Of a stretch of DNA of 64,000 nucleotides, positions 1-23,551 are shown piece by piece. A program made the position numbers and the translations under genes. Location of the stretch: contig NZ_SDIC01000004.1 of NCBI RefSeq assembly GCF_004116405.1, positions 166,079 through 230,078 of the forward strand. Reading direction: 5' to 3'. The DNA comes from Halegenticoccus tardaugens. GTDB lineage: Archaea; Halobacteriota; Halobacteria; Halobacteriales; Haloferacaceae. Under the pieces are notes generated by a model. That model saw only the letters and a program-made list of their open reading frames with translations, made no database searches and was not told where the DNA came from. Position 1 is the first letter of the stretch. The number at the start of each line of letters is the position of its first letter.

Positions 1-39
1 TTAACCACGCAAACCGAGTACAAACCGGAGGTCTGCACG

Positions 40-453
40 TTGGAAATCTCAGATAAACTCCTGTGTTTGTTCAGTGCGGAGGTGCGAGCGGAAGACGACA
101 GGTACGTCGTCGAGGTCCCACGCCGCGAGGTCGAGACGGGTTCGATCGACGCCGGCGACGTCTACCGCGTTGCGCTCATCTCTCGGAGAAACGCGACCGC
201 GAAGGAGCGGGAGGGTGCGAACGCGAGCGGCAGCGGTAGTCCGTCGAGCGAGCCGCAGCCGCCGGTCGAGATCGGCGAACTGCGCTACGTCGAGATCGAG
301 GACATCGGCAAGCAGGGCGACGGCATCGCCCGCGTCGAACGCGGGTACGTCATCATCGTCCCCGGCGCGGAGATCGGCGAGCGCGTGAAAGTCGAGATCA
401 GCGAAGTGAAGTCGAACTTCGCGGTCGGCGAGATCATCGAAGACGACTTCTGA
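40..453 (+). CDS. TRAM domain-containing protein
   Basis: 137 aa. The C-terminal segment GDGIARVERGYVIIVPGAEIGERVKVEI matches the TRAM/OB-fold motif. The N-terminus is acidic. Confidence 0.65.
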   Translation: MEISDKLLCLFSAEVRAEDDRYVVEVPRREVETGSIDAGDVYRVALISRRNATAKEREGANASGSGSPSSEPQPPVEIGELRYVEIEDIGKQGDGIARVERGYVIIVPGAEIGERVKVEISEVKSNFAVGEIIEDDF

Positions 454-465
454 ACGCCGCTTTTT

Positions 466-1173
466 TCAGCGGGTCCGCGCGTCCCAGTAGGAGACGGACG
501 CGAGCTTCCGCCCGAGCGCGCTGTCGCGAAGCGACGCGTCGAGCTCCCTGAACTGCCCGGCGACGCCGTTCGGGATCTCGCGGTAGAAGCCGTACGGCAG
601 GACGAAGTCGTGCGCTTCGTTCGCGAGGACGAGCCCGGCGTCGCCGAGCAGCCGCTCGACCTCGTCGCGGGAGTACAGCCGAGATCCCATCGGCAGGAGC
701 CAGTTGTAGATGCTGCGCGTGCTGAATCGGTTGAACGTGTCGAAGAACACCTGGTTGCGCGAGACGCGCGCCATCTCGGCCAGGAACTTCGCCGGCGTGT
801 CCGCGAGGTGGAAGAACCGGATCGCGAACACCGCGTCGAAGTGGTCGTCGGGAAACGGTAGCCGGGCGGCGTCGCCGCGCATGAACTCGATGCGTTCCCC
901 GACGCCGAACTCGCGGGCCTTCCGCCGACCCTGCGCCATCATGGCCGACGAGATGTCGAGTCCGACGATGTCCGCGCCGCGCTCTGCGAGCATGACGGTG
1001 AAGCGCCCGGTTCCGCAGGCGATTTCGAGGACTCGCTTGTCTTCGAGCGCGCCCAGTGCGTCGAGTACCGCCCGTTTCTCTCGACGGTCGATGAGCCGAC
1101 CGCCGTTCGAGAAGCGCTTCGTCTCGTACTCCTCGGCGATGTCGTCGGCCTGGTACCACTCCTTCCCTTTCAC
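466..1173 (-). CDS. class I SAM-dependent methyltransferase
   Basis: Motif LEIACGTGRFTVMLAERGADIVGLDIS (Rossmann motif I). The likely start is GTG at 1173 (VKGKEWYQADD). The ORF upstream of that is Arg/Pro-rich junk. Confidence 0.6.
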   Translation of the reverse strand: MKGKEWYQADDIAEEYETKRFSNGGRLIDRREKRAVLDALGALEDKRVLEIACGTGRFTVMLAERGADIVGLDISSAMMAQGRRKAREFGVGERIEFMRGDAARLPFPDDHFDAVFAIRFFHLADTPAKFLAEMARVSRNQVFFDTFNRFSTRSIYNWLLPMGSRLYSRDEVERLLGDAGLVLANEAHDFVLPYGFYREIPNGVAGQFRELDASLRDSALGRKLASVSYWDARTR

Positions 1174-1275
1174 GTTACCGCAACGTGTTCGCCCGGGGAC
1201 TAAAGTCGTGTTGGATGGGATCGCCGATCCGGCGGACGAGCCGGCGCTTATCCGACTGGGGGGCGTACCGGCGGG

Positions 1276-1438
1276 CATGCCGACGTGCAAACGCTGCGGG
1301 GCGGAACACGACGCGGCGGAACTGATCCGACACGAGCGCCCCGGGGTGATTCTCGTCCACTGCCCCGACTGCAACTGCCTGCTCGGGCGGTATCGCCGGC
1401 ACGGGGACGATCCGCGGACGGACACGCGGCGGCACTGA
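1276..1438 (+). CDS. small zinc-ribbon protein (CxxC...CxxC)
   Basis: MPTCKRCGAEHD...VHCPDCNCLLG has two CxxC pairs. An alternative GTG start lies near 1208. It overlaps the antisense 5' region of the methyltransferase ORF. Confidence 0.3.
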
Positions 1439-1478
1439 GCCGTCGGCGAACCGCTCCGCCCGCCCGTCGGGATCTCGA

Positions 1479-1874
1479 TCACTCCCCGCCGACGACGATC
1501 TCGTCCGTCGGGATTCGCACGATGACGCGCGCGCCGGACTCCTGATCGAGGTTCGGATACTCGTCCACGCCCATGTACCGCTTCGCGAGTCGGTGTATGT
1601 GCTCGACCGCGCCGTCCTCCGAGAGCGTCGCCTCGCCGCGGACGGAGACGAACCGGTACGGATCGTCGGGGTCGACGACGGACACCCCGACCTTCGGCTC
1701 CCGTCGGATGTTCTTCTCCTTTCGCCGCCCGCGCGCGGTGTTCACGAGCACGTACTCGCCGTCCTCGTGGTCGACCCAGACGGGCGTGACGTGGGGCGTC
1801 CCGTCCGGCATCACGGTCGCGACGTGCGCGAAGGCTTGCTTTTCGAAGATCTCCCGGTGTGACGCGGGTATCAT
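1479..1874 (-). CDS. pyridoxamine 5'-phosphate oxidase family protein (FMN/F420-binding split barrel)
   Basis: 131 aa. The segment FAHVATVMPDGTPHVTPVWVDHEDGEYVLVNTARGRRKEKNIRREPKVGVSV is typical of the PNPOx-like family. Confidence 0.7.
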   Translation of the reverse strand: MIPASHREIFEKQAFAHVATVMPDGTPHVTPVWVDHEDGEYVLVNTARGRRKEKNIRREPKVGVSVVDPDDPYRFVSVRGEATLSEDGAVEHIHRLAKRYMGVDEYPNLDQESGARVIVRIPTDEIVVGGE

Positions 1875-2013
1875 GGGTAATCTATCGGGGTCAATCGGTA
1901 AAAACGCACCAGGGGATCGTCACCCAGATAGATATAAGGACCTTAAGTAATCTCCATCCTTTTGTTGCATATGTAGCGAAGCTTTACCACGCAGGGTTTT
2001 CACACTACGGAGT

Positions 2014-2289
2014 ATGAGCACCAGTACCACCGCAGAGCCCGCCAGAGAAGACCGTCTGTCGGAGCAGGAGTTTCGCGACCGCCTGCGCGAACTCCCCCCG
2101 AGCGCGAAACTCGTCGCCAAGGTCCTCGAGAGCGAAGCCCCGCTCTCGCAGGGACAACTCGCCGACGAGTCGCTCCTTCCTGACCGGACCGTCCGCTACG
2201 CCCTGAACCGACTGGAGGATTCCGAACTCGTGGGCTCGCGGTACAGCTTCAAGGACGCCCGCAAGCAGGTCTACTTCCTCAACGCGTAG
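2014..2289 (+). CDS. winged helix-turn-helix transcriptional regulator (MarR/ArsR-like)
   Basis: 91 aa. The segment LVAKVLESEAPLSQGQLADESLLPDRTVRYALNRLEDSELV is a wHTH. An AT-rich TATA-like promoter (gatagatataagg) lies upstream. Confidence 0.55.
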   Translation: MSTSTTAEPAREDRLSEQEFRDRLRELPPSAKLVAKVLESEAPLSQGQLADESLLPDRTVRYALNRLEDSELVGSRYSFKDARKQVYFLNA

Positions 2290-2386
2290 TTCGCGTCCGC
2301 CGTAGCGTTCTCGCCTCGGACCGCCGCCCGCCCCCGTCCGCGACGGAGAGGCGTCAGTTTAAGTGTTCGGTCGTCTACGTGCCTGT

Positions 2387-3295
2387 ATGAATCTCTCGGT
2401 AGTCGTCCCGACCCTGAACGGCCGGGACCGGCTCGCGGCCAGCCTCGATTCGCTGGCGGCGCACGCGCCGGACGCCGAGGTCGTCGTCGTCAACGGGCCC
2501 TCCGCGGACGGCACCACGGGGATGGTTCGCGAGCGCGACGACGTCGACGTGCTCGTGGAGATCTCCGCCCGGACGCTGAACGTCGCCCGGAACGCCGGCG
2601 TCGAGGTCGCGTCGGGGGACGTGGTCGGATTTCTCGGGCAGGACTTCGTCATCGAAGAGCCGTGGCGCGACGCCGTGGCCGAGGGGATCGCGGACGCGGA
2701 CGCGGTTACGGGGCCGACGCACCAGGCGCTCCGGGTCGGCGTGACGACGGACGACCCGGAGCGCCGGGAGATCGCGAACCGGCGCGTCACGTACTTCAAC
2801 GGCGGCAACGTCGCGTTCAGGGCGGAGACGCTCGACGCGATCGACGGCTTCGACGAGTACCTCGAAACCGGCGGCGCGCGCGACGCCGCCCACCGACTGG
2901 CGGGGCGGGACGCGACGGTCGAGTGGCAGCGAGAGATGTGCGTCCGCCGCGAGCACGAGACCGAAGCCGACGGCGGCGTTCCGGCGCACAGGTGGAACTG
3001 GAAGTACCGGGCGCTGACGTACCGCCTCGTGAAGAACTACGGACTGCGCCCCACGGTCGTCCGGCGGACGCTCTCGCACGCGGCGGGCGACGCGGCGTCG
3101 ACGGCGCGGGACGTGGTTCGCGGCAACGCGACCCCGACGACGTGGGCCGGAAACGGCCGGGACGTCGTCTGCGGGATCGTCACCGGAACCTCCGACGGGC
3201 TCGTCGCTCGGGCGCGGGACCGCTCGTCGACGCGAAATCCGCACGGCCTCTCGAAGCGCGCCGACCGGGCCGTAGCGCGGTACGACTGGCGCTAG
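2387..3295 (+). CDS. glycosyltransferase family 2 protein
   Basis: LSVVVPTLNGRD...VVVVNGPSADGT is the GT-A N-terminal signature. The start was chosen at MNLSVVVP. Confidence 0.7.
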   Translation: MNLSVVVPTLNGRDRLAASLDSLAAHAPDAEVVVVNGPSADGTTGMVRERDDVDVLVEISARTLNVARNAGVEVASGDVVGFLGQDFVIEEPWRDAVAEGIADADAVTGPTHQALRVGVTTDDPERREIANRRVTYFNGGNVAFRAETLDAIDGFDEYLETGGARDAAHRLAGRDATVEWQREMCVRREHETEADGGVPAHRWNWKYRALTYRLVKNYGLRPTVVRRTLSHAAGDAASTARDVVRGNATPTTWAGNGRDVVCGIVTGTSDGLVARARDRSSTRNPHGLSKRADRAVARYDWR

Positions 3296-3347
3296 GCGAT
3301 CCGTCCGAGGCGCGGTCCGACGGCCGAACGGTCGCCGCGGACTACGC

Positions 3348-4178
3348 CTACGCCTCGACGCCCGGCGCGAGCGCGGGCACCACGCGCGAGGGGTTTTTCG
3401 AGAACGCGCGGCGCATCGCGTCCTCCGGCACGTCGAGCGTCAGCACCTGCATGACGCCGACGTTCGGGTGCGACTCGGGGACGCCGCTGCCGAACAGGAT
3501 CCGATCGGGGTGTTCGAGCAGGCCGCGCTCCATCGGGGTGCGAGAACCGACGAAACTCGTATCGAGGTGGAGTCGGTCGTGCGTCTCGAGCATGTCGAGC
3601 GCGCGGGTCGCGAGCGTCCGGCTCGGCGGAAATCCGTCGAGGCTGGTGAGCACGACCGGGAAGGACCGCCCGAGTAACGGTCCGGCGACGGCCTCGGGGG
3701 GGAAGCGTTCGCCCGCGCGAACGAACACAGGCAGCGCGACGTCGTCGAGTTCGTCGAGCACCGCCGCGTCGGGGAGCCCGTCGACGGCCGGATCGAGCAC
3801 GAACCCGTGAAAGCGATCGTCGTAGGCGAACCGCTCCACGTCCTCCGGGTCCGCGTGGTGCGCCTCGCGGCCGGCCGCGAGGTTCCGCAGTCGGGCGACC
3901 GGCCGGCCGGTCGGGTCGCGCGGGCCGTCGATCCGCGCGACCGCGAGGAACGGTCGATCGACGCTCAGCCGAGCGACCGCGTTGTTCGCCCGGAGGTACC
4001 CTTCGCCGGGCGGTCGCGGCCCCGGCGAGACGACCGCCTTCACCACGCCCGCCTGGTGCATCTCCCGCTCCAGCCGCTCGGGCGAGATCTCCCGTCCGCG
4101 GGCCGCCGCCTCGGTCGCGTCCGGATCGAGGCGAGCGCGCACGTCGACCACCCGAAACCCGTGCTCCAGCTCCAACAT
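3348..4178 (-). CDS. amidohydrolase family protein (metal-dependent TIM-barrel hydrolase)
   Basis: The start was taken at the internal Met (MLELEHGFRVVDVRARLD). The C-terminal HPDRILFGSGVP resembles amidohydrolase_2. Confidence 0.6.
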   Translation of the reverse strand: MLELEHGFRVVDVRARLDPDATEAAARGREISPERLEREMHQAGVVKAVVSPGPRPPGEGYLRANNAVARLSVDRPFLAVARIDGPRDPTGRPVARLRNLAAGREAHHADPEDVERFAYDDRFHGFVLDPAVDGLPDAAVLDELDDVALPVFVRAGERFPPEAVAGPLLGRSFPVVLTSLDGFPPSRTLATRALDMLETHDRLHLDTSFVGSRTPMERGLLEHPDRILFGSGVPESHPNVGVMQVLTLDVPEDAMRRAFSKNPSRVVPALAPGVEA

Positions 4179-4434
4179 CGTGCGAGAACTCTCGGTCTGA
4201 ATATGTAAGTTTTGAGGCGTACCTCCGCCGATCGTCCGATCCGGAGTCTCGCCGGCGGCACCCGCCGCGATCCGTCGTTTCCCGGGACGACGCGCCCGTC
4301 CGATCGACGCCCGCACACGCGCGCCGAGTGAGTCACGCTCACGCTCGGTCGCTCCCGTCGGGGGGTTTCCCCGAAAAAGAACAGAAATCTATATATAGAA
4401 CCGCAATCCATGAATCCGGTGAGGTTTACTCATC

Positions 4435-16097: not shown

Positions 16098-16898
16098 ATG
16101 ACCACGGACGCAGGAACGGCGGCTCGACTCGAACGCATCTCGACGGACGGGCGATACCTCATCGTCCCGATGGACCACGGGATCACGCTGGGAGCCGTCA
16201 CGGGCCTCAAGAACATCGAAGAGACGATCGACGCGGTGACGCGCGGCGGGGCGGACGCGGTGCTCACGCAGAAGGGCATCGCCCCGCGCGTCCACCCGTA
16301 CAAGAACGACAAGGGGTACATCGTCCACCTGAACGCCTCGACCGTCATCGGCCCCGATTCGAACGACAAGCGCGTGACCGGCACCGTCGAGGACGCGATC
16401 CGGGCGGGCGCGGACGCCGTCTCCCTCCACCTCAACGTCGGCAGCACCCACGAACCGGAGCAGATCGAGGACCTCGCGCGCGTCACGTCGGACGCCCGCC
16501 GGTTCGGGATTCCCGTGCTGGCGATGACGTACGCCCGCGGCCCCGGCGTCGACGAGCACGACGCCGAGAGCCTCGGCCACGCCGTCCGCCTGGGGGAAGA
16601 GCTCGGCGCGGACGTGATCAAGACCGCCTACAGCGGCGACGCCGACAGCTTCCGCCACGTCGTCGAGTCGACGCGCCTCCCCGTGGTCATCGCGGGCGGC
16701 AGCCGCGGCACCGACCGGCGGACCATCGAGATGGTCCGCGGCGCGATGGACGCCGACGCGGCGGGCGCCTCGATGGGCCGAAGCATCTTCCAGCACGAAC
16801 ACCCCGAGGCCATCGCCCGCGCCGTATCGGCGGTCATCCACGACGACCGCGAGACCGACGAGGCGCTGGAGATCGCGGGCCTGTCGGCGCAGGCGTAG
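16098..16898 (+). CDS. class I fructose-bisphosphate aldolase family / 2-amino-3,7-dideoxy-D-threo-hept-6-ulosonate synthase (archaeal aroA')
   Basis: DhnA-type aldolase (LIVPMDHGIT...DAV...KTAYSGD). Its position next to trp and the other aro' genes suggests ADH synthase of the archaeal shikimate pathway. Confidence 0.75.
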   Translation: MTTDAGTAARLERISTDGRYLIVPMDHGITLGAVTGLKNIEETIDAVTRGGADAVLTQKGIAPRVHPYKNDKGYIVHLNASTVIGPDSNDKRVTGTVEDAIRAGADAVSLHLNVGSTHEPEQIEDLARVTSDARRFGIPVLAMTYARGPGVDEHDAESLGHAVRLGEELGADVIKTAYSGDADSFRHVVESTRLPVVIAGGSRGTDRRTIEMVRGAMDADAAGASMGRSIFQHEHPEAIARAVSAVIHDDRETDEALEIAGLSAQA

Positions 16899-17018
16899 GC
16901 GGCGGCGTGGACGTACGCGTCACCGGACGGACTCCGCGGCGCGCGCCTCGACCGAACCGCCACTCGTCGGAATCGAACCGGGGCCGAGAGTTTTGTGCCG
17001 CCGCGACGATGGGGAGCC

Positions 17019-17807
17019 ATGGCGTCAGTAACCTACGACTTCACGGACGAGACGGCGATCGTGACGGGCGGGTCGAGCGGCATCGGGCGCGAGGTGGCGC
17101 GGCGCTTCGGCGAGGCGGGCGCGACCGTCGTCGTCGCCGACGTCCGCGACGCGCCGAAGGACCTCGACGAGACGATCCCGACGCACGAGGCGATCCGCGA
17201 GGCCGGCGGCGAGGCCGAGTACGTCGAGACGGACGTCTCGGTGCCCGAGGAGATCGAGTCGGTCGTCGAGGCGGCCCGCGACTTCGGCGGCGTCGACGTG
17301 ATGGTGAACAACGCGGCCGTCCAAATCCCCGGCCGGATGTTCGAGATCACGAGAGAGCAGTTCGACCGGATCCACGCCGTGAACGTCCGCGGCGTCTACT
17401 TCGGCGTTCGGGCGGCCGCGACGGACATGCTCGACCGCGACGACCCGGGGTGCATCGTCAACACCGCATCGATCAGTTCGAACCTCGCGCAGAAGGGGCA
17501 GGTGCAGTACGACTCGACGAAGGGGGCGGTGCGGATGATCACCCGCGGGTCGGCGCTCGAACTGTCCGAACACGAAATTCGCGTCAACGCCGTCGCGCCC
17601 GGCCAGATCGCCACCGAGTTCGCCGAGGGGTGGACCGAGGAGGCGGAAGAGAAGGGCGCGCGGGGCGAACTCCTGAAACCCATCCCCCTCGGCCGGGCGG
17701 GGACGCCCGAGGACGTCGCCGGCGCGGCGCTCTTTCTCGCGAGCGACGACGCGCGGTACGTGACGGGCGAACTGCTGCACGTCGACGGCGGCTGGCAGAT
17801 CTGCTGA
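17019..17807 (+). CDS. SDR family NAD(P)-dependent oxidoreductase
   Basis: TGGSSGIGRE (TGxxxGxG), NNAA, and the S...Y..K catalytic triad region (YDSTKGAV). Confidence 0.85.
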   Translation: MASVTYDFTDETAIVTGGSSGIGREVARRFGEAGATVVVADVRDAPKDLDETIPTHEAIREAGGEAEYVETDVSVPEEIESVVEAARDFGGVDVMVNNAAVQIPGRMFEITREQFDRIHAVNVRGVYFGVRAAATDMLDRDDPGCIVNTASISSNLAQKGQVQYDSTKGAVRMITRGSALELSEHEIRVNAVAPGQIATEFAEGWTEEAEEKGARGELLKPIPLGRAGTPEDVAGAALFLASDDARYVTGELLHVDGGWQIC

Positions 17808-17861
17808 CCCGGCGCGGTTCGGCCGGTTCGACCGGCGGCTCCACGATCCGGCTCGCCGCGC

Positions 17862-19043
17862 TCACCCGCCTCCTTTTATCATCTTGATCCGGTCGACGCC
17901 CAGCTCGGAAATCGACTCGTCGAAGAGGTGATCGCCACGCTGCCGCTGGGCCACCACGAGTTTGCGTTCGAGCGTCCCATCGTCGCGCGCGGCGTCGAGG
18001 GCGGCGGCCAGCTCCCGCTCGTCGTCGGCCGACGCCTCCGAGAACGCCTCGATCACGGCGTCGACCCACTCGTCGGAGAGCGCCCGCCCGTGCGCCGTCA
18101 TCGGCAGGTCCTCCGCCGTGACCTCGCGGTCGCCGGGGTGTTCGATCGACACGACGAGGACGTACGCGCCGGTGTCCGGGTCGCGCTCCACGTCGGGGAG
18201 TTCGAAGCCGCCCGCGCCGTCGCCGACTCCGGCACCTCCGACGTCGCCGACGTTCCCGCCCTCTTCGACGTCGTCGGCGAGGAGCACCTCGGGGACGTAC
18301 GGGCTGTCGATGGTGACGGTCAGCCCTCGGTCGCGGGCGAGCAGACACAGGGACGCCGGCGTGTCGGCGATGTAGTCGGTCGGGCTGTCGGTGTCGGCGG
18401 TCACGGTCTCGTCGTGGTATCCGAGGAGCGTCCCGAGCCCGTCCGCGACCCCCGACACGTCGGCGGCGAGGATCGCCGCGCAGACGCCGGCGATCGCCTC
18501 CATGTACGGGTTGTTCACCTCCGCCAGCGCCTCGCGGTAGTTCGAAAGCAGGTCGTCCGCGCGGTCGTCGTCGAGGACGATCGCGGCGCGGAGCGTCGCG
18601 GTGTAGTACCGCGTGTGGTTGTCGTCGTACGGCGGGCCGGCGAACTCGTCGAGGTACGCGTCGTCCATCGCGAGCGTCTCGGTCGCGGCCTCGGCGAGGA
18701 GGTCGTCGTCGCGGGCGAGTTGCGCCGTGATCATCGCCCGGAGCAGCACCGCCGGGTCACTTTCCCTGTCGACCTTGTCTCGCGTGTCCGGCGGGGCGCG
18801 GGCCTCGCGGACGCTTTCGAGGTAGTACCGCCCCGCCTCGGCGTACGCCTCCCTGGCCTTCTTGCCGTCGCCGAGGAGCGCGTGAGATCCCGCGAGCGTT
18901 CTGTAGCGATTCGCGAGCGCGAACCAGTGTCTGGATATCGCGTGATCCTCGATTTTTCCCTCCTCTCGCCAGAGGTGGTTTTTTTCAATGTTCTCGCGGT
19001 ACCGCGAGATCAGGTCGTTCAGTCTTTTTTCCGAGAATCTCAT
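17862..19043 (-). CDS. hypothetical protein (393 aa), coupled partner of the nuclease-like gene; foreign codon usage
   Basis: There are no recognisable catalytic motifs and no Walker A. The GGAGGTGA Shine-Dalgarno-like sequence sits 5 nt upstream, and the ATG overlaps the upstream stop (ATGA). The N-terminus has A/T-ending codons atypical for the host. Confidence 0.5.
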   Translation of the reverse strand: MRFSEKRLNDLISRYRENIEKNHLWREEGKIEDHAISRHWFALANRYRTLAGSHALLGDGKKAREAYAEAGRYYLESVREARAPPDTRDKVDRESDPAVLLRAMITAQLARDDDLLAEAATETLAMDDAYLDEFAGPPYDDNHTRYYTATLRAAIVLDDDRADDLLSNYREALAEVNNPYMEAIAGVCAAILAADVSGVADGLGTLLGYHDETVTADTDSPTDYIADTPASLCLLARDRGLTVTIDSPYVPEVLLADDVEEGGNVGDVGGAGVGDGAGGFELPDVERDPDTGAYVLVVSIEHPGDREVTAEDLPMTAHGRALSDEWVDAVIEAFSEASADDERELAAALDAARDDGTLERKLVVAQRQRGDHLFDESISELGVDRIKMIKGGG

Positions 19044-19882
19044 TGTGTCACCTCATCCGTTTTTACTATCGTTACGCCATCTAGGTCAAGATCAGGGTCT
19101 GAAAGCCCTGCGGTGATCGTCGAATCCGATTTCGAATCTTGAACGACGACCGCCTCTTTCCGATAATTACCGTTCTGGATGGCTAACTCTAGATCGTCTG
19201 GGACATCGGCTCCCTTTTCGAGTAGTTCTTTTTCGAACGCGTCCTCGATCCACCTGTCTGACATCTGCGTTGCCTTCGAACCGTCGTCTAGCGTCCGCTC
19301 TGAACTGAATTTGTTTTTGCCGATCGGTTCCGACGATCGGGTGAATTTGACTTCGACGATGACGTATTCGCCGGTCTGCGTGTCCTTGGCGATGAGATCG
19401 ATCCCGGGATCAGAACCGCGTTTGTCGGCGAAGACGACCTCCTGATTCTTCCGGTCTTTGATGAGCGCGGGCGCAATGTCTTCCTCGACGACGTCCCGCC
19501 CGATCTCGCTGCTGGACCGATCTTTGAGGTCGTCGGCCGAGTCGATCCGGTCGCTCCGCGAGACGTAGAATCCCTCACCGTCTTCCGGATAGTTAAATTC
19601 GAGGTCGACGCCGTCGCGCTCGCCACGGACGACGACTCCGCTCGCGGTTCGCGTCACTTCGGCAGCGCTATCGAGGTCGTTGAGGACGCCGCCGAGATCT
19701 TCTCCGGCCAGCGAACGAACGAGTTCGTCTTGTTGTCCGCTGAGTTCGGATAGCCGACGTCGATCGACATCGGACGCTCTCTGCAGCGCCGTGGTCTGCT
19801 GTGTCTCCGGCAGTTCGAGTAATCGACCGCTGAGACGCCGGTCCCGCGAAACCGGTCGTCCCCGTTCGAACTCCCGACGCAT
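19040..19882 (-). CDS. hypothetical protein with PD-(D/E)xK nuclease-like core (GIDLIAKD...EYVIVEVKF)
   Basis: 280 aa. The D-x(n)-E-x-K arrangement is in a beta-strand context. GC3 is about 60% compared with about 85-90% in neighbouring genes. The ATG is only 27-39 bp from the divergent aroB' start. An alternative GTG start lies at 19657. Confidence 0.45.
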   Translation of the reverse strand: MRREFERGRPVSRDRRLSGRLLELPETQQTTALQRASDVDRRRLSELSGQQDELVRSLAGEDLGGVLNDLDSAAEVTRTASGVVVRGERDGVDLEFNYPEDGEGFYVSRSDRIDSADDLKDRSSSEIGRDVVEEDIAPALIKDRKNQEVVFADKRGSDPGIDLIAKDTQTGEYVIVEVKFTRSSEPIGKNKFSSERTLDDGSKATQMSDRWIEDAFEKELLEKGADVPDDLELAIQNGNYRKEAVVVQDSKSDSTITAGLSDPDLDLDGVTIVKTDEVTQ

Positions 19883-19920
19883 CCGCCACGTTCAAGCCGT
19901 CCCCCCGAGTGCCACCGATA

Positions 19921-21144
19921 ATGACACGCAGCGTGTGGCTGAAGGCCGACGACGCGGTCGGCGACTGGGACGCGCGGAAAAAGCGGATCACCGCCGGGCT
20001 CGAAGCCGGCGTCGACTGGGTGCTCGTCGACGAAGAGGACGTGGCGCGCGTCCGCGAACTGGGCGACGTGAAGGTCGCCGCGTTCCTCGCGGGCACGGAC
20101 GCGCATGTCATCGACGCGGAGGAAGCGGACGAAAAAGAGGAGGGCGAGGCCGCGGACGCTTACGTCGTCGGCAAGGACGGCGAGGGCGACGGGACGATCG
20201 ACCTCCCCTCGGACTTCTCGGGGTCGGCCGACCTCACGACTCTCCGGCGCTACGACAACCGGGCGCAGGGATCGTACGTCCGCATCCGCGGCAAGGCGTA
20301 CGAGACGTTCGCCGAGGAGGCCGCCGTCGACGCCGAGTACACGATCGTGGTCGGCGAGGACTGGAAGATCATCCCGCTCGAGAACCTCATCGCCCGCATC
20401 GGCGAGGAGACCGACCTGATCGCGGGGGTGACGACCGCAGACGAGGCGCAGACGGCGTTCGAGACGCTCGAACTCGGCGCGGACGGCGTTCTGCTCGACA
20501 CCGACGACCCCGACGAGATCAGACGGACCGTCGGGGTCCGCGACGCGACGGAGCGGGAGAAACTCGACCTCCGCTGGGCCGAGGTGACGGCCGTCGAGCG
20601 AACGGGCATGGCCGACCGCGTCTGCGTCGACACCGGGTCGATCCTCGAACACAACGAGGGGATGCTCGTCGGGAGCCTGGGCCGCGGCCTCTTTTTCGTC
20701 CACGCGGAGACCGCGGAGTCGCCGTACGTCGCCTCCCGACCCTTCCGGGTGAACGCGGGCGCGGTCCACGCCTACGTCCGCACGCCCGGCGGCGGGACGA
20801 AGTACCTCTCGGAGCTGAAAAGCGGCGACGAGGTTCAGGTCGTCGACACCGAGGGGCGAACCCGCGAGGCGATTGTCGGTCGCGTGAAGATCGAAAAGCG
20901 GCCGATGTTCCGCGTCGAAGCCGAGGTCGACGGCGACGCCGGCGGGGCCGAACGCGCCGACGGGGACGGGTCGGGCGATCGGATCGAAACCCTGCTCCAG
21001 AACGCGGAGACGATCAAGGTCGCGACGAGCGACGGCCGAAAGGCGGTGACGGATCTCCAGGTGGGCGACGAACTCCTCGTCTACTACGAGGACACCGCCC
21101 GGCACTTCGGCGAGGCGGTCGAAGAGAGCATCATCGAAAAGTAA
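19921..21144 (+). CDS. 3-dehydroquinate synthase II (archaeal aroB')
   Basis: The segment SVWLKADD...WVLVDEEDV and the overall ~400 aa architecture match the DHQ synthase II family. An alternative ATG is at 19909. Confidence 0.8.
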   Translation: MTRSVWLKADDAVGDWDARKKRITAGLEAGVDWVLVDEEDVARVRELGDVKVAAFLAGTDAHVIDAEEADEKEEGEAADAYVVGKDGEGDGTIDLPSDFSGSADLTTLRRYDNRAQGSYVRIRGKAYETFAEEAAVDAEYTIVVGEDWKIIPLENLIARIGEETDLIAGVTTADEAQTAFETLELGADGVLLDTDDPDEIRRTVGVRDATEREKLDLRWAEVTAVERTGMADRVCVDTGSILEHNEGMLVGSLGRGLFFVHAETAESPYVASRPFRVNAGAVHAYVRTPGGGTKYLSELKSGDEVQVVDTEGRTREAIVGRVKIEKRPMFRVEAEVDGDAGGAERADGDGSGDRIETLLQNAETIKVATSDGRKAVTDLQVGDELLVYYEDTARHFGEAVEESIIEK

Positions 21145-22483: not shown

Positions 22484-23551
22484 CTATCGGTTCGGACCGC
22501 TTCGATCCTCGACGGGGACGTGCTCCGCACGGTACCGGACCCGATCACCGCGACCCGTCGGCGCGTCCCGCTCGACCGAGTCGACCTCGTACAGCCGGAT
22601 GCGACGCTCCTGCTTCGTGACGACCGGGAAGTCGTAGTGGACCGCGTCGTAACGCGGACGCTCCTCGCGACCGTCGACGAACGTCCGGTGGCGGTCGAGC
22701 CGCGCCTCGGCCCGCTCCCGGGAGCCGGCGGGGAGCCCGTCGAGGCGCGCTTCGAACGCCGAAACGAGTTCCGCGTCGAGTTCGTATCCCACCGAGTTGC
22801 GCGCCGCGAGCGCCGCCGCGACCCCCGTCGTCCCGGTGCCCGCGAAGGGATCGAGCACGGTGTCGTCGTACAGCGAGTACATCCTGATCAGCCGCAGCGG
22901 GAGTTCGACCGGGAACGCGGCGGAGCGCTCGCGGACCGCCGGATCCGAAAGCTCCTGCGCTTCGCCGCCGATCTCCCAGAGGTCCGAGAACCACTCGTTG
23001 CGCTCCTCCCAGAAGAACGCGCTCTCGTAGCGAGCCGGGTCGCCGGCGGGAAACGAGCGGGCGTCCCCCTTCCGAAAGAGCAGGACGTACTCGTGTTCGA
23101 GCGTGACGTAGGCGCTCGGCGGGAGCATGCCCGAACCCATGAACTTCGTGAGCCGGTTGGTCGGCTTCCGCCAGAGCACGTCGGGGAGCGACCGGAGGCC
23201 GCGCTCGCGGAAGGCGTCGACGATCCGGGCGTGGTTCGGGAACTGACGGAACTCGCCGTCGACGGAGCGCGTGGCGTCGCCGACGTTGACGCAGGCGATC
23301 CCGCCGGGCGCGAGCGCCCGGACGACCTCGTCCCAGACCGCGTCCAACTGGGCGTGCATTCGCTCGAAGGCACCCTCGGCGTCCCCCTCCGCGAGCGCCG
23401 TCGCGACCGCCGAATCCCGCGAGGCGAACAGGTCGTCCCACATCTCGATCATCGGATACGGCGGCGACGTGACCACCAGATCGACGGAGCCGTCGGCGAC
23501 CGCGTCCATCTCGGCGGCGTCGCCGACTCGGAGGGCGTGCTGCGTCTGCAT
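22484..23551 (-). CDS. DNA methyltransferase, beta-class amino-MTase (N4-cytosine or N6-adenine), apparently orphan
   Basis: 355 aa. Motif IV DLVVTSPPY is N-terminal to motif I DPFAGTGTTGVAA. The start at MQTQ was verified by codon count. No endonuclease gene is adjacent. Confidence 0.85.
   Translation of the reverse strand: MQTQHALRVGDAAEMDAVADGSVDLVVTSPPYPMIEMWDDLFASRDSAVATALAEGDAEGAFERMHAQLDAVWDEVVRALAPGGIACVNVGDATRSVDGEFRQFPNHARIVDAFRERGLRSLPDVLWRKPTNRLTKFMGSGMLPPSAYVTLEHEYVLLFRKGDARSFPAGDPARYESAFFWEERNEWFSDLWEIGGEAQELSDPAVRERSAAFPVELPLRLIRMYSLYDDTVLDPFAGTGTTGVAAALAARNSVGYELDAELVSAFEARLDGLPAGSRERAEARLDRHRTFVDGREERPRYDAVHYDFPVVTKQERRIRLYEVDSVERDAPTGRGDRVRYRAEHVPVEDRSGPNR

Follow-up and report, generated by a model that had tools for sequence, protein, structure and literature searches.

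Background

Proteins of the Imm49 family are the immunity partners of two toxins with a restriction endonuclease (REase) fold, Tox-REase-1 and Tox-REase-6, which carry the signature 'E, D, ExK, Q', according to the survey by Zhang, de Souza, Anantharaman, Iyer and Aravind in 2012 (PMC3482391); this survey lists no archaeal Imm49, Tox-REase-1 or Tox-REase-6. Orphan modules, in which a C-terminal (CT) toxin part and an immunity gene stand together, have been defined for contact-dependent growth inhibition (CDI), Rhs and Maf loci (review PMC4436062). Among the haloarchaea, toxin-immunity pairs of a contractile injection system (CIS) resembling a type VI secretion system (T6SS) have been demonstrated experimentally in Halogeometricum borinquense, where they act in contact-dependent antagonism (PMC11566945). 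The DNA analyzed here is a 64-kb window of Halegenticoccus tardaugens, to which all coordinates refer, and the subject is a pair of adjacent minus-strand genes (gene 1 and gene 2) that lies in it between an SDR gene and aroB'. Judged from sequence comparison, this region is very probably a solitary orphan toxin-tip/immunity cassette from a haloarchaeal polymorphic toxin system. To our knowledge, polymorphic toxin systems are considered scarce in archaea.

The preliminary description of this DNA had proposed a novel toxin/immunity or defense system. The nuclease toxin with an immunity partner is supported; the novelty as a system is not, since the pairing of a REase-fold toxin with Imm49 is already known from polymorphic toxin systems (PMC3482391). 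The identification itself is of an ordinary kind, turning a pair that reads 'restriction endonuclease + hypothetical' into a polymorphic toxin/immunity cassette and correcting one database name; the immunity gene already carries its correct name there.

Organization of the gene pair

Gene 1 (19040..19882, minus strand; 280 amino acids (aa); WP_129114830.1) bears the NCBI name 'restriction endonuclease', and gene 2 (17862..19043, minus strand; 393 aa; WP_129114829.1) the name 'Imm49 family immunity protein'. Both open reading frames (ORFs) are present as first described, and they are regarded as real because relatives exist in the databases and their codon-position composition is normal; the remaining long ORFs of the window are the usual artefacts of 70% G+C DNA. 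The segment holds just the last 260 codons of a toxin gene together with a complete immunity gene.

The two genes share an ATGA stop/start overlap (19040..19043, minus strand; read from the sequence and noted before), and a Shine-Dalgarno-like GAGGTGA (19048..19054, minus strand) lies among the final codons of gene 1 and precedes the ATG of gene 2 by 4 nt. This element had been reported as a perfect GGAGGTGA located 5 nt upstream; the actual motif is tGAGGTGA, a 7/8 version. Motifs of the GGAG/GGTG type occupy the equivalent position in three other loci of the family described below (L089, L088 and L002), and the identical 4-nt overlap is found in four (L002, L088 and L089 as ATGA in the sequence, L091 from annotated gene coordinates), so that the co-translation proposed earlier is retained: the two genes are probably translationally coupled, as read from these signals.

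Toxin tip and toxin family

Residues 21-280 of gene 1 are 63% identical (BLASTP, E 3e-105) to residues 1418-1677 of a 1679-aa protein of Natronobiforma cellulositropha with a VWA domain and an N-terminus that resembles a signal peptide by eye. Because the match reaches the extreme C-terminus of the Natronobiforma protein, gene 1 is read as the C-terminal tip of a giant protein. In N. cellulositropha a homologue of gene 2 (52% identity) lies 5 nt downstream of the gene for this protein. A recent transfer from Natronobiforma was considered and is ruled out, synonymous sites being saturated.

Three parts can be told apart in gene 1. Codons 1-20 (19823..19882, minus strand) are derived from the insertion junction and have no homology to any toxin, the BLASTP match beginning at residue 21; a frameshifted remnant of toxin homology within these codons ('SNGDD' in the +1 frame, set against 'SGDD' of Natronobiforma) was examined and found not significant. 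Residues 21-75 (19658..19822, minus strand) form a predicted pre-toxin helical linker, which aligns to Natronobiforma residues 1418-1473 and of which residues 26-60 are modelled as a helix in a low-confidence model; in the long homologues P0017, P0019, P0027 and P0028 the match spans the N-terminus of the query profile through the toxin domain. Residues 76-280 (19043..19657, minus strand) make up the predicted REase-fold PD-(D/E)xK toxin domain, from about the start of which most homologues match to the C-terminus. No export signal and no delivery part is found in the window copy of the toxin.

The PD-(D/E)xK core noticed earlier is confirmed by a Pfam match of residues 154-194 to Mrr_cat_2 (24.3 bits, cut-off 22) and by conservation of the catalytic signature E134, D162, E177-V-K179 and Q206 (19265..19483, minus strand) in 8/8 aligned toxin homologues. 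The predicted secondary structure of the domain is alpha-beta-beta-beta-alpha-alpha-beta-beta, and both the residues and the predicted order of strands and helices agree with D...(D/E)xK on successive strands preceded by an acidic helix. By eye the signature is compatible with that of Tox-REase-1/Tox-REase-6 (E, D, ExK, Q[, Y]); the Pfam scans returned no Tox-REase-1 or Tox-REase-6 profile, and homologues match only generic REase models, and these below threshold. The domain exceeds the cut-off for the generic Mrr_cat_2 model only and may represent a separate REase family. A sequence search of solved structures gave no significant match.

That gene 1 might encode a restriction endonuclease that stands alone, or be what is left of a restriction-modification system, is suggested by the Mrr-type Pfam family, by the NCBI name and by a DNA methyltransferase gene 2.6 kb away (22484..23551). 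This methyltransferase is, however, conserved in place in 34/80 relatives that lack the module (80% identity in H. soli), and it is separated from gene 1 by aroB', a zinc-ribbon gene and aroD; the nearest relatives of gene 1, moreover, are tips of giant VWA/TSP3 proteins, and its partner is an immunity protein instead of a methylase, which together make the restriction reading hardly tenable. The methyltransferase was accordingly rejected as a partner of gene 1, being a resident orphan methylase that is shared with module-less relatives. It lies on the minus strand, has a TSPPY motif, shows 72-74% identity to Haloferax relatives and presumably resembles the zim CTAG methyltransferase.

An exhaustive HMMER profile search of 1.84 billion representative proteins returned 81 toxin homologues; a word-indexed protein search, also when run with a 6-sequence profile, gave only 2-3 relatives for each query, and a scan of metagenomes added one locus. 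Among the homologues of at least 1000 aa, the match ends no more than 65 residues from the C-terminus in 13/15, and the N-termini are of several kinds (PQQ beta-propeller; VWA with calcium-binding TSP3 repeats; TSP3 only; Ig/CARDB/glucodextranase-B). The named long homologues are all haloarchaeal (Halorientalis brevis, Halogranum). An Imm49 gene stands directly 3' of the toxin domain in L001, L084 (H. brevis, 2030-aa toxin), L086 (1812 aa), L088, L089, L003, L091 and L093, of which L091 is a megaplasmid of Natribaculum luteum with a 1762-aa toxin whose gene overlaps the Imm49 gene by 4 nt, and L093 is the MPF_T-typed plasmid pNYT1 of Haloarcula taiwanensis. The pair does co-occur in unrelated contexts, in multiple loci. 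The exception is Halogranum salarium (L087, 4001-8052), where a 1107-aa toxin homologue is followed by an SprT-like (PF10263) gene and no Imm49; the SprT-like gene may be an alternative immunity solution, or this toxin may have no immunity. Comparison of these loci shows donor-type genomes to encode toxins of 1000-2000 aa with varied N-termini, the last ~200 residues of which form the predicted nuclease, with Imm49 next, often at a 4-nt overlap. The cassette had been described as a stand-alone two-gene module, and this does not stand, gene 1 being the truncated tip of a protein that has 1000-2000 aa elsewhere and taking its start codon from host-conserved sequence.

Cassettes without a full-length toxin occur elsewhere in the family. 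The metagenomic contig L090 (JGI Ga0207754_101458, positions 1-4213) carries an immunity / tip / immunity / tip / immunity array, consisting of an Imm49 fragment, a long immunity gene (379-1596), a toxin tip (1247-2125), an Imm49 gene (2100-2909), a second toxin tip (2913-3446) and a further Imm49 gene (3443-4213). On pNYT1 (L093, 79-6831), a gene for a 1436-aa hypothetical protein and a presumed immunity gene of 275 aa precede a toxin-tip ORF of 154 aa and an Imm49-like gene, which by gene order is a classical main toxin followed by an orphan module, on a plasmid. Long-type immunity genes with no toxin tip upstream were found in L002 (1-1661) and L092 (6743-8185), and look like orphan immunity genes; the one in L002 shares an ATGA overlap with a gene encoding another, Cys-rich protein, and a DUF7958 gene stands downstream of it.

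Two further observations concern members of the family. In H. brevis (L084, 17864-18093) there is another Imm49 gene ~5 kb downstream of the pair, after the gene for a 265-aa coiled-coil-like protein that is not toxin-like, and the G+C content of this locus is low throughout (0.43-0.58). The N-terminus of the metagenomic toxin P0003 (alignment A4, positions 1-112) matches internal regions of 400-1000-aa proteins that have no REase tip (P0047, P0054, P0055, P0066 and others), which suggests a pre-toxin module that is shared and joined to other tips.

The loci outline a coherent haloarchaeal polymorphic-toxin family of giant VWA/TSP3 proteins, a REase-type tip, Imm49, orphan cassettes and orphan immunity genes, and this family offers concrete candidates for research on archaeal cell-to-cell antagonism. 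Some of its features could also be accommodated by an autonomous toxin-antitoxin or abortive-infection module, the nuclease of which would be freed from its partner on virus infection: the short toxin homologues of 380-420 aa that accompany long immunity genes in L088 and L089, the tight coupling by ATGA overlap and Shine-Dalgarno motif, the intact catalytic motif, and a toxin whose activity, if any, would be intracellular for want of an export signal. Such a module is nevertheless highly unlikely, given that the nuclease homologues end giant multi-domain proteins (one with a signal-peptide-like N-terminus), that the partner family is defined as polymorphic-toxin immunity, that the start and the first 20 codons of gene 1 derive from the junction and not from the toxin, and that the neighborhood is one of housekeeping genes and no defense island. 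PADLOC, likewise, gave only a partial match of gene 1 to a type IIG REase (13 bits, E 0.0027) and nothing for gene 2, and with no significant match the anti-phage module put forward in the preliminary description was dropped.

Immunity protein

Residues 86-254 of gene 2 match the Pfam family Imm49 (PF15575) with 41.1 bits against a cut-off of 30.1, which overturns the earlier statement that neither protein matches a well-known family; NCBI, too, already names both proteins. The predicted all-alpha Imm49 domain covers residues 1-255 (18279..19043, minus strand), and in an AlphaFold2 (AF2) model with a mean predicted local distance difference test (pLDDT) score of 81.8, residues 5-238 are all helical. 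Gene 2 keeps the motifs that are conserved in all six aligned long immunity proteins, which are 26-54% identical to it.

Gene 2 belongs to a long immunity form of 377-395 aa, which is found in the window, L001, L002, L088 (twice), L089, L090, L091 and L092; the immunity partners of the more distant toxins, and that of L003, are of ~250 aa and consist of Imm49 only. The additional part of the long form, residues 284-393 in gene 2 (17865..18194, minus strand), has no Pfam family match and is predicted by hhalign and by reciprocal hidden Markov model (HMM) matches to be a pseudo-nuclease domain related to the toxin itself. The first hints were tblastn cross-hits and a BLASTP match of the C-terminal ~110 residues of gene 2 to the nuclease domain of gene 1 (E 0.038). 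Alignment of toxin domains with immunity C-domains by hhalign gave a probability of 96.7% (E 4e-10) with 3 sequences per side and of 98.3% (E 1.5e-14, 112 columns) with 10 toxin domains and 7 immunity C-domains, compared with 0.1% (E 0.78) in a control with reversed columns; HMMs of the two domains find each other reciprocally, and their predicted secondary-structure elements pair one to one. The larger partner, formerly described as motif-less, therefore contains both an Imm49 match and a dead copy of the toxin domain.

The immunity copy begins at the Asp-bearing strand of the toxin and misses the acidic helix before that strand. The Lys of ExK is absent in 6/6 aligned immunity copies (I or M instead), the Gln is replaced by A, L or V, and the Glu position is variable; in the alignment of the two window proteins, E177 corresponds to V298, K179 to I300 and Q206 to A321. 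Structural motifs are retained (GRxLSDEW, RKLVV, IDxI), and it is argued that the domain is functional, because it is conserved across proteins that are only 26-54% identical. The alternation of immunity genes and orphan tips in arrays suggests that Imm49 became fused to an orphan tip located downstream, and we infer that the domain so formed aids binding or mimicry of the toxin.

It is possible, though put forward tentatively, that this haloarchaeal Imm49 subfamily recruited a dead copy of the nuclease of its cognate toxin and neutralizes the toxin through mimicry; the copy could, for instance, join the toxin in an inactive toxin/pseudo-toxin heterodimer or block the partner or DNA-binding surface of the toxin. 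The pseudo-nuclease domain might act as such a decoy subunit, as an extra binding surface or in DNA binding, and a neutralizing role for it is conceivable rather than probable. If the domain does take part in neutralization, immunity would have evolved from the weapon itself, and the family would be a system for studying pseudo-enzyme decoys. A toxin-derived dead domain on an immunity protein appears to be undescribed in the literature searched, the 2019 archaeal survey by Makarova et al. left aside; a 'decoy subunit' immunity mechanism, if true, is one that we have not seen described for polymorphic toxin systems.

Insertion site

The cassette is flanked by the SDR gene (16995-17807) on the side of gene 2 and by aroB' (3-dehydroquinate synthase II; plus strand, ATG at 19921) on the side of gene 1, in agreement with the preliminary description. 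Beyond these, trpB, trpA and the ADH synthase gene (aroA') precede the SDR gene on one side, and a small zinc-ribbon gene and aroD follow aroB' on the other. The ATG of gene 1 (19882) is 38 bp from the ATG of aroB' and 26 bp from an in-frame GTG further upstream, values which agree with the 27-39 bp given before.

In the congener Halegenticoccus soli (L012) the gene order is trpB-trpA-aroA'-SDR-aroB', and the distance from the SDR stop to the aroB' ATG is 87 bp as against 2113 bp in the window. Colinearity with H. soli is lost a few nucleotides past the SDR stop (~17816) and returns exactly at 19880, with 49/51 identical positions in 19880-19930. From these limits the foreign segment of ~2.06 kb, absent in H. 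soli, is placed at 17817..19879, barely more than the two ORFs. A scan for aroB' in species-representative genomes yielded 80 haloarchaeal loci (L004-L083), and a relative of either gene was found within 7 kb in 0/80. With an empty site in H. soli and neither gene at the 80 related loci, the proposed insertion between SDR and aroB' and the horizontal acquisition of the module both hold up, and the two genes are not ordinary conserved proteins of the locus in all relatives. By this comparison the cassette is a ~2.06-kb patch captured between the SDR gene and aroB' of H. tardaugens.

The insertion ends precisely at the edge of a conserved region upstream of aroB' (19880..19920, plus strand), which is intact and is conserved in H. 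soli and Haloprofundus. A CATCCGCCACGTTCAAGCC element within it hardly differs between H. tardaugens, H. soli and Haloprofundus marisrubri, and the region that contains it is probably the aroB' promoter, to judge from this conservation. The CAT at 19880-19882, which is the ATG of gene 1 on the opposite strand, lies within CATCCGCCACGTTCAAGCC. As CATCCGCCACGTTCAAGCC is also present at the module-less loci of H. soli and Haloprofundus, the start codon of gene 1 is located in host-conserved sequence upstream of aroB'. The presumed promoter is, from the alignment, undamaged, and the locus illustrates how a truncated gene may gain a start codon at an insertion junction with the adjacent promoter undisturbed.

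No tRNA gene and no mobility gene was found near the module, and no terminal inverted repeats are convincing: the repeat pairs that were listed resemble chance matches in GC-rich DNA. A possible direct repeat of 8/9 nt is present at the ends of the insertion (17862-17870 and 19879-19887: TCACCCGCC / GCATCCGCC); H. soli carries one TCATCCGCC at the corresponding place. The gene 2 stop and the gene 1 start would both come from this repeat; its length does not set it apart from a chance match, and it is too weak to be claimed.

The interval between aroA' and aroB' (16898-19921 in the window) varies across haloarchaea from ~60 bp to more than 5 kb, and its cargo elsewhere is unrelated to the cassette (ABC-2 permease, EamA transporter, HTH_10 regulator, cytochrome P450, TFIIB-like gene); its G+C content is lower (0.55-0.60) in several species of Haloferax. 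From its gene content the interval is a variable slot and not a defense island. The location in a defense island considered earlier is thereby contradicted, the neighborhood being housekeeping and the slot carrying transporters, regulators or P450 elsewhere.

Base composition

The G+C content at third codon positions (GC3) of gene 1 is 0.65, falling to 0.48 at its 3' end. That of gene 2 is 0.89 overall, with ~0.7 in the first ~40 codons and 0.9-1.0 thereafter, and that of the neighbors is 0.91-0.95. The G+C dip to 0.53-0.56 is limited to ~18750-19500. A foreign composition is restricted to gene 1 and the first ~40 codons of gene 2. The GC3 of 55-60% that had been assigned to the whole module is thus low as stated for these parts and does not apply to the rest of gene 2, which is host-like; the 85-90% given for the neighbors was too low. 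Gentler G+C valleys occur at the toxin-tip/immunity junction in Natronobiforma and Halorientalis brevis.

A sharp step in GC3 is seen inside gene 2 (18900-19043 compared with 17865-18900), and the N-terminal 48 residues of its product are the part least like Natronobiforma (30-40% identity). The step may mark a recombination breakpoint; possible causes are a later recombination patch or differing selection on an unexpressed toxin remnant.

Composition also bears on the possibility that the two genes have become functionless remains of an old insertion. Gene 1 has an atypical GC3, is truncated, has no start of its own and no recognizable promoter space (38 bp to aroB'), and the parent toxin gene is absent from the window. 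Yet neither reading frame is interrupted in its 280 or 393 codons, the toxin retains all five of its catalytic residues, and gene 2 has a host-like GC3 with normal codon-position periodicity and keeps the motifs of the six aligned long immunity proteins. The intact frame, host-like GC3 and conserved motifs of gene 2 are the pattern expected under purifying selection. Inertness of both genes is therefore unlikely; taken singly, gene 1 is possibly a pure relic, and gene 2 is unlikely to be one.

Proposed function

The cassette thus remains best described as an orphan toxin-tip/immunity pair, and its function is discussed on that basis. In the donor genomes the large protein would be exported and would present its tip to an adjacent cell; the tip would enter this neighbor and cut nucleic acid by means of E134, D162, E177, K179 and Q206, and the co-translated immunity protein would shield the producer through stoichiometric binding. 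In H. tardaugens the cassette cannot serve as a weapon, because the tip has no delivery part. The function likely to be under selection is protection by gene 2 against relatives that deploy the full-length toxin; this protective role is judged rather likely, and a host-like GC3 fits a long retention of gene 2 under selection. Expression of gene 1 is doubtful. The intact tip may lie silent as a recombination reserve, or it may be expressed at a low level, in which case the pair could act as an addiction module that retains the insertion.

Several points weigh against the interpretation as a toxin/immunity cassette. The AF2 model of gene 1, built from a 2-sequence alignment, is poor (pLDDT 44), which leaves sequence motifs and a marginal Pfam score as the evidence for a nuclease fold. 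No full-length toxin gene was found in the 64-kb window by tblastn with the Natronobiforma toxin. The difference in GC3 between gene 1 and gene 2 (0.65 vs 0.89) is not explained by a single simple acquisition. Toxicity, neutralization, expression and export are putative, and the model supplies no route by which a toxin exported through Sec would get into a haloarchaeal target cell.

Comparison with known systems

Orphan immunity genes and acquired interbacterial defense islands of Bacteroidales are said to have been described by Ross et al. in 2019. Like these orphan genes, the toxin-less immunity genes of L002 and L092 are kept with no usable cognate toxin and are presumed to shield against neighbors. 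Unlike the Bacteroidales islands, the window has a single cassette in an archaeal host, the toxin tip is kept, and there is no integrase-associated array.

The immunity protein differs from Imm-PA2201 (Pseudomonas aeruginosa PA2201, PDB 2FEF), with which it shares only 13% identity and which consists of two all-alpha domains with no toxin-like alpha/beta domain. As in the experimentally shown pairs of H. borinquense (PMC11566945), a haloarchaeal toxin is combined with a downstream immunity gene, the present pair being predicted; in contrast to H. borinquense, no CIS genes are linked to the toxin family in the loci examined, and the carriers look Sec-exported.

With the orphan CT/immunity modules (PMC4436062) the cassette shares a tip that has lost its trafficking part, a retained pre-toxin stretch and a cognate immunity gene next to it, and cassette arrays are likewise found in the toxin family (L090, L093). 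Classical orphans lie directly 3' of a full-length gene, downstream of a toxin gene with which they can recombine (PMC4436062); no such gene is present within the 64-kb window, and the cassette is instead solitary in a trp/aro cluster, with its ATG in host-conserved sequence. Compared with the polymorphic toxins (PMC3482391), the carriers are of the Sec/VWA/TSP3 type and not linked to type V, VI or VII (T5/T6/T7) secretion, and the window copy is truncated, whereas the C-terminal PD-(D/E)xK tip, the interchangeable N-termini, the Imm49 gene immediately downstream and the E/D/ExK/Q signature are those of a polymorphic toxin system (PMC3482391).

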